Source: Leptonemataceae bacterium
GTDB taxonomy: Bacteria > Spirochaetota > Leptospiria > Leptospirales > Leptonemataceae
Assembly: GCA_965227295.1 (NCBI GenBank)
Contig: OZ245742.1
Coordinates: 2,976,001-3,040,000, forward strand
Direction of reading: 5' to 3'
Length of the DNA stretch: 64,000 nucleotides
A program made the position numbers and the translations under genes. Of this stretch, positions 12,254 to 25,930 are shown in pieces; within the stretch, counting starts at the first letter, position 1, and each line of letters begins with the position of its first letter. The notes below the pieces were generated by a model that saw only the letters and a list, made by a program, of their open reading frames with translations, had not been told where the DNA came from and ran no database searches.

Positions 12254-13216
12254 CACAATTCCGCAACTTACTTCATGTTTCTCACGGCAACGCAACGAAC
12301 CGCAACTCTTGAACTACCGGAAACGCGCGGGTAGTTCGCACACGCCCCGATTCGTGGTGTAAGTAGCGGCCAGTGTACATTAAGGCTTTTATGGGTACGG
12401 CTGGTTCCAGCTGACGAGCGGAGGTCATGCCGGGGATTTTGGTAAGGCGCACCGGAACGGCGTCTTCGCCGTGAGGAACGCTGCGGGAGCTGAGTCACAA
12501 ACCAGCGTCCGGGTCGAGGCGGACTATCTTAACAAAACGACATACCACAACTCCCGCTCAGCCGTAGCCATAAAGATCCCTTCACAATTCCGCAACTTAC
12601 TTCATGTTTCTCGCGGCAACGCAACGAACCGCAACTCTTGAACTACCGGAAACGCGCGGGTAGTTCGCACACGCCCCGAATCCTGGTGTAAGTAGCGGCC
12701 AGTGTACATTAAGGCTTTTATGGGTACGGCTGGTTCCAGCTAACGAGCGGAGGTCATGCCGGGGATTTTGGTAAGGCGCACCGGAACGGCGTCTTCGCCG
12801 TGAGGAACGCTGCGGGAGCTGAGTCTCACAACCAGCGTCCGGGTCGAGGCGGACTATCTTAACAAAACGACATACCACAACTCCCGCTCAGCTGTAGCCA
12901 TCAAAACCCCTTCACAATTCCGCAACTTACTTCATATTTTTTGCGGCAAAGGCAACGAAACGCGGCTCTTGAACTACCGGAAATGTTTCCTTCGTTCGAG
13001 CACGCTCCGAATCGTGGTGTAAGTAGCGGCCAGTGTACATTAAGGCTTTTATGGGTACGGCTGGTTCCAGCTAACGAGCGGAGGTCATGCCGGGGATTTT
13101 GGTAAGGCGCACCGGAACGGCGTCTTCGCCGTGAGGAACGCTGCGGGAGCTGAGTCACAAACCAGCGTCCGGGTCGAGTCGGACTATCTTAACAAAACGA
13201 CATACCACAACTCCCG
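12254..13216 (+). repeat. Tandem array 2 of the ~330-bp repeat (partial unit, units at 12492 and 12821, and a unit at 13152 cut at 13216)
   Basis: Same conserved blocks; near-identical units at 329-331 bp period. Confidence 0.95.
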
Positions 13217-13231
13217 TTGTGTAAAGAGAAG
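13206..13231. other. Left attachment site (attL): core CACAACTCCCG followed by terminal inverted repeat TTGTGTAAAGAGAAG
   Basis: 11-bp direct repeat of 25920-25930; 13217-13231 is the inverted complement of 25911-25925 region (14/15 match). Confidence 0.85.
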
Positions 13232-13305
13232 TAAATATAGTAAGTGGAAAAAGCGTGCGTTTTTGGCTTGCCGGTTTCGGTGGCGCGTATATGTCCGCTT
13301 GCTGT

Positions 13306-14298
13306 ATGGAGAAATCAAAAATTGCTAACATTGGTGCCGCGCGACTTAGTGGTCACAGTGTTACCGTTTCCAATTCGGGCTATACGGATTTTACACCGTT
13401 GCTCGGTGAGATCCGTTTTGACGCCCTGCCGGAAATCGCCGGTGCCTGGGATAATGCTAACCGGCACGTCGCCAAACTTAACGCCCGGCACCCGGCGGGC
13501 TTCGGGCTGCTCGAAATTGACGCCTATTTGACCGAATACGCGCACGGGCGCGAGAATGCCACGGTTAAGAACCTCGGTTACGGCCTGCGTAACTCGGTGA
13601 TTCAGGCAATGGGCCTGGACTATCGTTTACACCATGGTAAACGAACCGTCGTGGACGAAACTTTTCGTCCTTATGTCACGCTGAAACCGCGCAAGGCCCG
13701 GCGACCGGTGCCGTCGCCGCGCGAAATCATGCGCGTCTTTGTGAGCGCCCGGCCGCGCGTCGCCTCCGTCGTGGAGATTCTGTTTCAAACGGGGCTGCGC
13801 ATCTCGGAACTCTGCAATCTGAAGATTTCCGACTTTGACCCGCAACCGACCGAGGACGGCACCGGCGTCGTCTTCCGCGTCAAGAACAAGGGCGGCGACA
13901 TCAAAGTCGTCAAGATGCGTCTGGCCACCTTCGAACGCGCCGTGAAGGCTTTTTACGGCTGTGTCTATCTGATCGAAAGCCGTCCCGGTAAGAAGTACTC
14001 GCGCCAGGGCCTGGCCGACCTGGTCAAGTGCGGCACGCGGCGCGTGCTCGGTCGCGCCTATCCCCCGCACAGTCTCCGGCACGCTCACGCCGATTACATG
14101 ATGGCGAACCATCCCGGTAAGCTTAAGGGCATCCTGGACAACGGGGGCTGGGCCAACGCGGAAGTGTTTATCAGCACTTACAATCATGTGCAATTGAACG
14201 TCGCGGATCTGCCGTCCCTGGACGATATGGCGGAGACGATGAACGCGCAGGCACAACCGCAGAAAACGCGGCGCGGGGACGGGCGACGCAAAGTCTAA
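13306..14298 (+). CDS. Tyrosine recombinase/integrase (XerC/D-like catalytic domain)
   Basis: TGLRISEL (R), KNKGG (K), HSLRHA (HxxR), GGW (H/W position) and STYNH (Y); ATG at 13306 preferred because the longer start overlaps the end repeats. Confidence 0.9.
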   Translation: MEKSKIANIGAARLSGHSVTVSNSGYTDFTPLLGEIRFDALPEIAGAWDNANRHVAKLNARHPAGFGLLEIDAYLTEYAHGRENATVKNLGYGLRNSVIQAMGLDYRLHHGKRTVVDETFRPYVTLKPRKARRPVPSPREIMRVFVSARPRVASVVEILFQTGLRISELCNLKISDFDPQPTEDGTGVVFRVKNKGGDIKVVKMRLATFERAVKAFYGCVYLIESRPGKKYSRQGLADLVKCGTRRVLGRAYPPHSLRHAHADYMMANHPGKLKGILDNGGWANAEVFISTYNHVQLNVADLPSLDDMAETMNAQAQPQKTRRGDGRRKV

Positions 14299-14322
14299 GT
14301 TTGTACGCGTAGAGGTTAAATC

Positions 14323-15096
14323 ATGCTGACTTTTTCCGTGAAACAGTTTCAGAAAGAAGCCGCGCGCATTCGCGAAGAATACGGCGGGGATGCGCGCTTT
14401 CGTCTGAAGATTCACCGCGCCGGTATGGAATCGGTGGAACTGCATTCGACCGATCTGCCGGAACTCGAACCGGGCGAATACACCGTCGAACTCGCGGCGA
14501 AAGCGCCCGGTGAAAAGGAATGGACGCGGGTATTTTCCGGCAAGATTCACCGGCCGTTACACGGAAACAGTAGTGCCGCGCGTAACACGCTCAAACATTC
14601 CGACGGGGGCGCCGTGAACGGCGGCGCCTCCGCGGGCAACGGTGCCGCGGAAAGCCTTGTTCTCGATCGCGCGTTTGCGTATCTCGAAAAGATCGAAGGC
14701 AAATTCGACGAAGCACAGCGCATCCGGGACAGCGCGGCGACGGCGTCTCTTGATATGACGATTCAATCGCTCAAAGGCGCGTTTTCCGCGGCCCTGGACG
14801 AAATTGTCCGCGCCCAGGATCGTTCTGTCGATCGGCTGCGCACCGAACTGGACGACACGATTAAGAGTTACGAACGCCGCTTCGAGAAACTCCAGGAAGA
14901 GCACGAAGACGACCGGCGTCGCTGGCAGGAGAAAAGCGCGGCGGACAACACGACGCCCGGCGAGCGGATGCTGGAACGCGGTATCCAGTTAGGCGAGAAG
15001 ATCTTAAGCAACCTTGATAAAATCAAAATGCTGACCGGCCAGGGTGTACCGCCCACCGCGGCGGCGTCCGGCCCGGCCAGAAGGGGACCAGTTTAA
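14323..15096 (+). CDS. Hypothetical protein with C-terminal coiled-coil
   Basis: 257-aa ORF with GAGG RBS, co-oriented with the integrase; charged helical C-terminal half. Confidence 0.7.
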   Translation: MLTFSVKQFQKEAARIREEYGGDARFRLKIHRAGMESVELHSTDLPELEPGEYTVELAAKAPGEKEWTRVFSGKIHRPLHGNSSAARNTLKHSDGGAVNGGASAGNGAAESLVLDRAFAYLEKIEGKFDEAQRIRDSAATASLDMTIQSLKGAFSAALDEIVRAQDRSVDRLRTELDDTIKSYERRFEKLQEEHEDDRRRWQEKSAADNTTPGERMLERGIQLGEKILSNLDKIKMLTGQGVPPTAAASGPARRGPV

Positions 15097-24556: not shown

Positions 24557-24648
24557 GCTCCGTCCTCAGTAGAGAGCAATTTTCTTGACCTTTTCTCCGT
24601 ATCGGATCGTCTGTCCTCTATGAAGAGCACTTCAAAGGAGGTCCGCAA

Positions 24649-25020
24649 ATGCGCGGGGACATATCGATCAACAACCAAACCGTCCACGGCGTCCGCTTGC
24701 TGACGTACAATGAGGAACCGGTCATCGGTATCCTGTACGGCACGGTCGGAATCGTCGTGGAAATCCACACGGGGCAGGTGAACGAGGACGGCCCGGAGCC
24801 GCTCGCGATACTGCTCAGTGCGGGCATACGAGTCGTAGAGGATTATTTCCTCATCCGGGGCTACCAGCGAACGGGGCGCGACCGATACGACCAGGACCGG
24901 TATTTCAAGCCGGGCCAGGCGCACGAATCGGCCGTCGTCCGGTTCTACCCGTACGGCACGGAAGACACAAAACGCTGGCTGGAACGAATCCAGCGGGGAG
25001 GTACCGATGATACGCGGTAA
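24649..25020 (+). CDS. Hypothetical protein, paralog 1 of a tandem triplet
   Basis: AAGGAGG RBS; shares MRG...YNE...RG(Y/F).R(S/T)G.D...H.S.V..F.P.G with the next two genes. Confidence 0.8.
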   Translation: MRGDISINNQTVHGVRLLTYNEEPVIGILYGTVGIVVEIHTGQVNEDGPEPLAILLSAGIRVVEDYFLIRGYQRTGRDRYDQDRYFKPGQAHESAVVRFYPYGTEDTKRWLERIQRGGTDDTR

Positions 25021-25345
25021 GATGCGTCTGGAAGATCGCACGGAGCAAGTCTATCTGTGCATGTACAGTGAGGCACCGAACGAGTACACGTCGTACGTCG
25101 CACACGATACGGTTGCCGAATTTCTGAGGAGGGACGGCAAAAATTTGGCGCCGGTTACACTGTTATTCGGCGCCTCGTTGCGGGTGTATGATCGGGAGAT
25201 GATCATCCGGGGCTTTCGCCGGAGCGGTCTGGACCGAAAGGATTACACCAATCACCTCAAGCCGGACCAGGAGCATCAAAGTGTGATTGTGCACTTTGTC
25301 CCGGACGGTGCGGACGAAACGGAGGACGAAGACGATGCGCGGTGA
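25007..25345 (+). CDS. Hypothetical protein, paralog 2 of a tandem triplet
   Basis: GGAGG RBS; overlaps paralog 1; IRGFRRSGLD...HQSVIVHFVPDG. Confidence 0.75.
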   Translation: MIRGKMRLEDRTEQVYLCMYSEAPNEYTSYVAHDTVAEFLRRDGKNLAPVTLLFGASLRVYDREMIIRGFRRSGLDRKDYTNHLKPDQEHQSVIVHFVPDGADETEDEDDAR

Positions 25346-25706
25346 CATGCTCATCAATGGTCGCCGATACGCGGGCGTCTACCTGCTGCTGTATAACGAG
25401 CAAACGGGGATCCAGGGCGACGTCGGGTCCATCGGAGCGGTAGCGGAAATCCACATACGCCGCGGCACGGATGATTACTATCCGGTGGCGGTGTTGATCG
25501 CCGCACAGGCGCGTGTGGTCAACGGTTGCCTGACCCTGCGGGGCTTCTTTCGCTCCGGCCAGGACCAGGAAGACGGAAGCCTCTGTCTACTGGCGAACCA
25601 GACGCACCGGTCAGCGGTGATCGAGTTTACCCCGTACGGCCCGGACGACCAGGACGAACGGGAACCGCACATGCACCAGTTGAAGCAGGAGGACGACACA
25701 GAATAG
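25335..25706 (+). CDS. Hypothetical protein, paralog 3 of a tandem triplet
   Basis: MRGDMLING...YNE...LRGFFRSGQD...HRSAVIEFTPYG; start set by homology to paralog 1. Confidence 0.8.
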   Translation: MRGDMLINGRRYAGVYLLLYNEQTGIQGDVGSIGAVAEIHIRRGTDDYYPVAVLIAAQARVVNGCLTLRGFFRSGQDQEDGSLCLLANQTHRSAVIEFTPYGPDDQDEREPHMHQLKQEDDTE

Positions 25707-25909
25707 TGCTTGTGTGCATCGGGTGAATACGTAAGATACTACCCGAAACCAAAAATTTTATTGGAGGATGGACACAACGCGCCACCGAAACGACAGGCAA
25801 ATCGGATTTCGATAAGAATCAGACTTGCAACCGGCCCCGGCCGATGTAAGATACTGACCAACGGAATCTAAAAAAAGCACTCTTAACGATCTTACCGCCG
25901 AAATGGCAC

Positions 25910-25930
25910 CTTTTCTTTACACAACTCCCG
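25910..25930. other. Right attachment site (attR): CTTTTCTTTACACAA followed by CTCCCG
   Basis: Inverted copy of the left end plus the duplicated core; the repeat unit continues (CTCAGCCGTAGCCATAAAGATCCC) as in the intact unit at 12557. Confidence 0.85.

Follow-up and report, generated by a model that had tools for sequence, protein, structure and literature searches.

We propose that El1, a 12,708-bp insertion in the genome of a Leptonemataceae bacterium, is probably a capsid-less derivative of a provirus-like family of the Leptospirales, and that its integrase joined a circular form of the element to a short core in a conserved part of an abundant host repeat. El1 lies between two CTCCCG cores in a stretch of 64,000 nucleotides (the window: positions 2,976,001 to 3,040,000 of the forward strand of contig OZ245742.1, GenBank assembly GCA_965227295.1), which belongs to a 5.94-Mb single-contig host genome (G000) whose relatives and TIGR04388 match point to the Leptospirales; positions given without a contig are those of the window, on the plus strand unless stated otherwise. 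El1 is best read as a derivative because it has kept the integrase arm and the ends of El2, a sister element in the same genome, and has a host-type TIGR04388-Hint toxin locus where El2 has virion genes. A preliminary description of this DNA had taken El1 for a compact element standing alone; that part has to be given up, because its integrase arm and both ends are common to El2, which carries a virion-like module.

Insertion sites of El1 and El2 in host repeats

El1 interrupts an array of a 330-bp host repeat (family A), of which about three units, the last one interrupted, lie to the left (12254-13216), and the remainder of the interrupted unit and the end of the array lie to the right (25931-26077). 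The preliminary description had the unit break at 13216 and resume 12.7 kb later, and this proved exact: the unit stops after 13216 and resumes with CTCCCG at 25925-25930. The spacing of repeat copies over El1 is 13,044, that is 12,714 + 330, so that removal of El1 restores the 330-bp period, and the unit, once rebuilt, agrees with the two neighbouring units at 307/330 and 304/331 positions. The junctions carry an 11-bp direct repeat, CACAACTCCCG, as attL at 13206-13216 (core CTCCCG at 13211-13216) and as attR at 25920-25930 (core at 25925-25930). Directly inside are inverted ends that agree at 14 of 15 nt: TTGTGTAAAGAGAAG on the left (13217-13231), a putative core-type binding arm, and CTTTTCTTTACACAA on the right (25910-25924). 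No exact copy of these ends occurs elsewhere in the host genome, where El1 itself is single copy. The host site resembles the El1 arm on its left side only (CACAA), and its right half is unlike.

The target is abundant and well conserved. A profile search finds 352 family A units in 116 clusters genome-wide, totalling 77 kb, or 10.2% of the non-coding DNA by crude gene calls; what had been called a tandem repeat is therefore a tandem array at this locus and is also dispersed over the genome. The 11-mer CACAACTCCCG falls inside family A in 126 of its 134 genomic copies, and the insertion window ranks 11th of 318 for conservation within the family. Because the core lies in an intergenic repeat, the cost of insertion should be low, and the 11-mer is available in about 126 copies. 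Within 20 kb there are two more family A arrays (8700-10540 and 28320-29300), and some of their units have an optional hairpin module beside the conserved core.

The enzyme is encoded at the left end (13291-14298, 335 aa; PF00589, E 2e-13, 50.9 bits against a curated cut-off of 27.1). It had been credited with a full R-K-H-R-W-Y set, which we can place at R170, K200, H260, R263, W287 and Y297, read from an ATG at 13291 common to two homologs. These residues are invariant in three homologs save K200, where the invariant neighbouring motif is K-G-G. The integrase is not the XerC or XerD of the host: its equivalog scores are 35 and 31 bits against cut-offs near 330, and the genome has two separate Xer-like genes.

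El2 was found by tblastn on the minus strand at G000:C1:4,226,253-4,208,433 (17,820 bp; L021, L022). Identity to El1 is 30% for the integrase, 51% for orf2, 55% for orf3 and 61% for orf4. El2 interrupts a different repeat, the palindromic family B (217 copies, 2.9% of the non-coding DNA), and when the empty site is rebuilt it agrees with an intact copy at 96% over 346 nt; the site ranks 4th of 92 windows for conservation across the family. The left ends of the two elements are in register (CCG, 13 nt, then the identical 15-mer AGTAAATATAGTAAG, at 13230-13244 in El1 and 13 nt from the junction in both), as are the right ends, which share the 19-mer TTTTATTGGAGGATGGACA (25756-25774, some 170 nt inward of the right end) and, 23 nt ahead of CTCC, the hexamer CGCCGA. 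The integrase gene begins 75 bp in from the left end of each element. Of the non-coding DNA, 17% consists of repeats that have at least six copies, and by a rough, after-the-fact estimate on two events the chance that both elements hit repeats is ~0.03, with a further ~0.0015 for both lying in such conserved windows.

Other accounts of the repeats found no support. A hairpin common to both targets was rejected, as site A does not fold and site B does. A REP/RAYT system (repetitive extragenic palindromes with their associated tyrosine transposase) was likewise set aside, the Y1 HUH transposase PF01797 not being found in G000 (93.6% complete; control 6/14). Rfam gave no match in 8000-30000 of the window or in two family B copies. 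Near the right end of El1, GTAAGATACT occurs twice, pointing outward (25731-25740 and 25847-25856), with no promoter score in a consensus scan; the same scan gave no promoter at the junctions.

The provirus-like family and the targets of its integrases

El2 is provirus-like and one member of a widespread family, and that it is a virus is likely. From orf3 to its right end it encodes a Cys-His-Asp-pattern protein, which has no family match and which we take to be transglutaminase-like, followed by membrane proteins, a 237-aa protein, a glycine-rich fibre and a LysM protein; after this virion-like module comes host-type cargo (DUF1554, an extracytoplasmic function (ECF) sigma factor and a FecR-like protein). 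Outside G000, 31 of 155 genomes of the order have the transglutaminase-like marker gene. We fetched 36 of 38 non-self places (family loci L160-L194 and L142), and their core is syntenic with that of El2. The family core comprises the marker gene, a membrane protein, a capsid candidate of 210-240 aa (present at 28 of the 36 loci), two further genes, the fibre and lysis; it is absent from El1, which shares only the left arm and the ends with El2. In the Atlas the 237-aa protein of El2 falls among viral clusters (0.96), the nearest named being P2_N/P2_C at 0.76, and its structural model gives a weak hint of a single jelly roll. El2 as a double jelly-roll virus with a FtsK-HerA packaging ATPase was rejected, there being neither a P-loop family match nor a credible Walker A motif.

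Left arms vary within the family and appear exchangeable. They presumably consist of a rolling-circle-like gene with a single-stranded DNA-binding (SSB)-like gene, or a tyrosine integrase with a DnaA-like gene, as we name them from their sequences, plus a primase-like arm at one locus (L180). The tracing of element ends covered the members with a tyrosine integrase. At one place (L163/L164, G087:C22) two family members stand tail to tail on one contig.

Tyrosine integrases are usually tied to single-copy sites such as transfer RNA (tRNA) genes or dif. An integrase is present at 13 of the 36 fetched loci, and its target could be read at 11 (not at L180 or L189). Five of the 13, all of one clade, use tRNA-Leu, with both ends seen in four and the left end only in one. 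Five others use dispersed repeats, of two families beyond A and B, and one lies at a non-repeat site. The preliminary description had named homologous elements at unrelated sites as grounds for refuting it. Within the two repeat-using clades, seven of the eight elements with readable ends lie in dispersed repeats, of four families. The claim of repeat targeting is in this way extended to El2 and to a second integrase clade, and the narrower claim of an attachment motif within one repeat family holds for the interruption of dispersed repeats and not for the single family or for the relatives at tRNA-Leu.

The second clade includes five integrases that are 90-100% alike, carried by elements of 17.4-17.8 kb at five loci in five other species. 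The left flanks of these elements share no translated match, and the right flanks are short or missing for four. Four of the five split the same palindromic repeat at the same base, with core CCCGCC; a pattern search for it gives 14-16 intact matches in every one of the five genomes, and the control gives 0. An eleventh integrase, at 55% identity, interrupts another repeat, with 15 bp directly repeated; each half corresponds to intact copies, of which that genome holds 13 more and two other genomes none.

In a tree of 41 rows, the integrases of El1, El2 and the protein P0003 form a clade (100/93), within a wider group (98/91) that includes an integrase on a 43-kb contig. That integrase (L104/L244) follows 27 nt (G013:C1:42338-42364) identical to the start of the chromosomal tRNA-Ile gene of its genome, and this match is probably the attP site of a free element. 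In the same tree, the second repeat-using clade (100/99) has the tRNA-Leu clade as its sister (93/89). Monophyly of the nine repeat-using rows is rejected in a quick tree (p-AU 7e-11; 37 rows, leaving out the misframed hostXer1 and L107 and the long L180 and L189, with the group defined once the first tree had been seen). Integrases of the second clade have only 22-25% identity to that of El1, and they form a parallel case rather than a replicate of El1; most likely, the repeat-using habit arose twice.

Further members of the El1/El2 type are signalled by the proteins P0003, P0005, P0009 and P0010. A scan of genome contigs kept 80 loci, with only partial matches of 25-36%, and motif scans of viral contigs gave 6 and 0 matches, none adjoining a homolog. 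Because genomes of the same genus lack the right-flank gene, as searched with this query, and almost lack repeat A (one weak match in five related genomes), there is no orthologous empty site to compare. The closest relative of the El1/El2 clade with its DNA at hand is the second of two integrases that flank a gene with many 66-bp tandem repeats (L119 4958-6318, G032:C52). At L180 (6560-6674, G030:C215) an element with integrase and primase starts directly after a REP-like repeat, found in two copies in that fragmented genome, and beyond the end of the repeat comes a short inverted pair, perfect and spaced by 6 bp.

Proposed mechanism and competing explanations

We hypothesize that El1 would form a circle in which imperfect inverted arms surround a 6-bp GC-rich core, and that its tyrosine integrase would recombine this circle with the same core in the most conserved part of the host repeat. 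Recognition is probably of a half site plus the core, because the host site matches the El1 arm on the left only. Related integrases would have changed their target to other repeats, and those of a second lineage would have done so on their own, starting from tRNA genes. El1 has kept the arm of integrase, orf2, orf3 and orf4 together with both ends, and lost or never had virion and lysis genes; it carries a host-type TIGR04388-Hint toxin locus as cargo, and its spread from cell to cell would need a helper such as El2. A bolder form of this hypothesis, which we hold only tentatively and rate somewhat below an even chance, sees undescribed tailless proviruses of the Leptospirales whose integrases have, at least twice, exchanged tRNA genes for species-specific dispersed repeats as targets, retuned through a short core and one arm, with El1 as a toxin-carrying satellite mobilised by El2.

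Several results weigh against these proposals. No circle junction (attP) or true empty-site joint of El1 appears in the contigs of the two public runs that hold it, although contigs drop rare variants; two joints in the runs (13216 to 26001 and 13127 to 26000, side 26-27) are most easily explained by other copies of the repeat. The many neutral landing sites that had been claimed are real in that matching cores are abundant, and they are potential sites only: of 141 family A core matches scored, only the two junctions of El1 are clearly interrupted, so that 1 of ~140 cores is occupied. The targets of El1 and El2 share only 7/12 junction bases (p ~0.02, in a window chosen afterwards), and therefore each integrase has its own target. 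The El1/El2 clade has only two members with readable flanks, and no close relative with flanks came out of the contig scans (three viral, two metagenomic, one genomic). Among the five second-clade elements whose integrases are 90-100% alike, one has a non-repeat site, where the match is 3 bp. As to the link with the family, orf2 and the left-arm protein of the family align with only 27% probability in hhalign, the model of the 237-aa protein has a predicted local distance difference test (pLDDT) of 41 and weak jelly-roll matches (best Z 5.6, with capsids in most top rows), a 23-row profile of the capsid candidate has no PDB or PHROG match, and the search of El2 for a Walker A ATPase was negative.

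What these results leave room for is, above all, loss of movement and loss of specificity. El1 might be an autonomous island or one independent of gene transfer, an immobile, domesticated provirus remnant kept for its toxin locus, its repeat targeting a matter of ancestral history. This has in its favour that no circle is seen, that sequencing depth equals that of the chromosome, and that the element is single copy with no replication, transfer or capsid gene found; but the integrase frame and catalytic set are intact, the inverted ends still agree at 14/15, and the junctions are unmutated relative to the neighbouring units, and we consider it rather unlikely. It is in any case compatible with specific or with relaxed targeting and leaves the targeting itself undisputed. 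A more direct challenge comes from relaxed specificity, of which Tn916 is the model: an integrase acting at many short GC-rich cores, followed by selection, would leave only neutral intergenic insertions, of which repeats are a large share. A core of 6-7 bp (GCTCCGC occurs 2,189 times in the genome), the unlike right half of the host site and the second-clade element at a non-repeat site would all fit. High-copy repeats, however, are only 17% of the non-coding DNA, yet seven of eight elements in two clades lie in them; four elements at different loci share one repeat and the exact base within it, both G000 sites fall in the top 4-5% of windows, and the direct repeats reach 11 and 15 bp in two cases. 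We therefore regard relaxed specificity as improbable.

Two further explanations carry far less weight. The inverted ends and the 6-bp duplication would suit a transposon with terminal inverted repeats moved by a DDE transposase in trans, the tyrosine recombinase being a passenger. However, the direct repeat is 11 bp long since the El1 end and the target share CACAA, the ends of El2 are poor inverted repeats yet stay in register with those of El1, the integrase keeps the same distance from the left end in both, and the genome has no second copy of the El1 ends, all of which makes such a transposon very improbable. Misassembly is a natural concern, because the junctions lie inside a repeat and the left junction 30-mer occurs nine times in the genome. 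El1 is present in two of three public runs, from one study that is possibly the source. A contig of one run, which may be the source sample, equals 13187-25949 without a difference, at a depth of 196 against 216 in the flank, and extends only 30 and 19 letters past El1, below the 31-letter bridge rule of the tool. Nevertheless, the sequence common to El1 and the repeat is just 11 bp, the right 30-mer has only two occurrences, and El2 and six other assemblies show this anatomy again, such that an artefact of this kind is scarcely credible. We retain integrase-mediated insertion of a capsid-less derivative as the probable reading of El1.

Cargo of El1 and relation to known systems

The left arm continues from the integrase with orf2 (14323-15096, 257 aa, a coiled-coil C half, no family match), of which no homolog is found in the 155 other genomes of the order, orf3 (15096-15437, 113 aa) and orf4 (15456-15719, 87 aa), a small basic helix-turn-helix (HTH)-like protein and candidate directionality factor that may direct excision. 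Next come orf5 (15854-16462, 202 aa), without a homolog in the genome, and, on the minus strand, a LuxR/GerE-type regulator (16497-17039) with a 49% paralog elsewhere in the chromosome. The main cargo is a 1843-aa TIGR04388-family protein (17199-22730; E 6e-108) with a PT-HINT domain (residues 1453-1573; E 3e-16). All parts of a polymorphic toxin layout are present, namely a TIGR04388 secretion N-terminus, Hint and a variable C-terminus, the last with a weak M91 metallopeptidase-like lead (0.84 only) and no intact HExxH in its frame. A 142-aa lipoprotein-like gene overlaps the toxin stop (22727-23155, no family match); of the Hint-toxin/immunity pair proposed earlier, the Hint protein has a polymorphic-toxin layout and is a putative toxin, and this gene is an immunity candidate by position only.

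A 224-aa membrane protein (23322-23996), a XRE/HTH_3 regulator (24071-24556) and three tandem paralogs of 112-139 aa (24649-25706; 34-41% alike, with one weak match, E 6.5e-4, in the 155 genomes) complete the element. The toxin cargo is a host-type locus because about a dozen paralog loci of the 1843-aa protein lie in the chromosome, with matches that stop at or near the Hint end, and because all five chromosomal homologs of the 224-aa gene adjoin TIGR04388-like loci. At another place (G000:C1:2279000-2296500), a TIGR04388-like gene is followed by several orphan Hint-C-terminal cassettes between family B repeats, resembling a toxin-tip array. The reported lack of relaxase, conjugation, replication and capsid genes agrees with our searches: none of the 13 El1 proteins matches a relaxase, coupling protein, type IV secretion system (T4SS) or other conjugation, replication or capsid family in Pfam, PHROGs or NCBIfam, and on the same searches we rejected El1 as an integrative and conjugative or mobilizable element (ICE/IME). 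No Walker A motif occurs in El1 frames of 60 aa or more, and PADLOC returned HTH matches only.

Phage satellites such as those resembling phage-inducible chromosomal islands (PICI) have an integrase at the left end, regulators, cargo and no virion genes, an arrangement that El1 shares. Unlike PICI, El1 has no primase/Rep or packaging-interference gene that we could find, and its core has direct homology to El2, a putative helper in the same genome. Tn7-like elements reportedly enter the repeats of clustered regularly interspaced short palindromic repeat (CRISPR) arrays.

Targeting of repeats is known from other enzymes. The prophage-like element phiRv1 uses a serine recombinase, Rv1586c, to enter the REP13E12 repeat of Mycobacterium tuberculosis (PMC9317374); like El1 it is small, phage-derived and has its attB in a dispersed host repeat, and it differs from the present case of tyrosine integrases with four repeat families and tRNA-using sister clades. 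Filamentous prophages Nf1/MDA occupy dRS3 repeats of Neisseria (PMC7058167). The likeness lies in a non-tailed virus that reaches variable loci through an abundant intergenic repeat. The Nf1/MDA enzyme is of the Piv/IS110 type, and the gene content is unrelated. Insertion sequences (IS) of the IS3, IS110, IS4, IS256 and IS5 groups target REP-like palindromic repeats as safe sites (PMC1525189), by transposases of small elements rather than by tyrosine integrases of elements of 13-18 kb. Phage AP1.1 integrates into CRISPR repeats with 8-bp attP-attB identity, any repeat copy serving as attB (bioRxiv 10.1101/2020.10.09.333658); the short identity and free choice of copy are as here, and the difference is that its target is one clustered array with a role in immunity. 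El1 is a variant of this known strategy of repeat targeting, which serine, IS110/Piv and other enzymes also follow.

Tailless jelly-roll proviruses of the STIV and Odin groups have a tyrosine integrase, HTH regulators and LysM, and the Odin group lacks a packaging ATPase (PMC5894146). The Leptospirales family resembles them in these respects and in small size, El2 sharing with Odin that no packaging ATPase was found, and differs in its capsid candidate of 210-240 aa, which is single-jelly-roll-like, and in that no sequence link is shown. The accessible text of PMC5894146 does not mention Leptospira or Spirochaet, nor do the accessible parts of that paper and PMC3184786 hold a tyrosine-integrase repeat case or a Leptospira provirus. 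A literature search that covered subscription papers and supplements thinly, with a listing in some survey table possible, found no account of tyrosine integrases that target dispersed repeats, nor any of this provirus family or of TIGR04388.

Taken as a whole, the pattern of targets suggests that certain tyrosine integrases gave up single tRNA sites in favour of repeats, which are abundant and harmless places to land. The natural pairs of related integrases described here, with tRNA against repeat targets, or with different repeat targets at 30% and 55% identity, have exact att sites, and the change of integrase target is therefore directly testable; such enzymes are also possible tools for multi-site integration. 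The analysis moreover exposes a widespread provirus-like family of the Leptospirales that we did not find in print, and El1 points to a route by which a virus arm may capture a polymorphic-toxin locus of its host.

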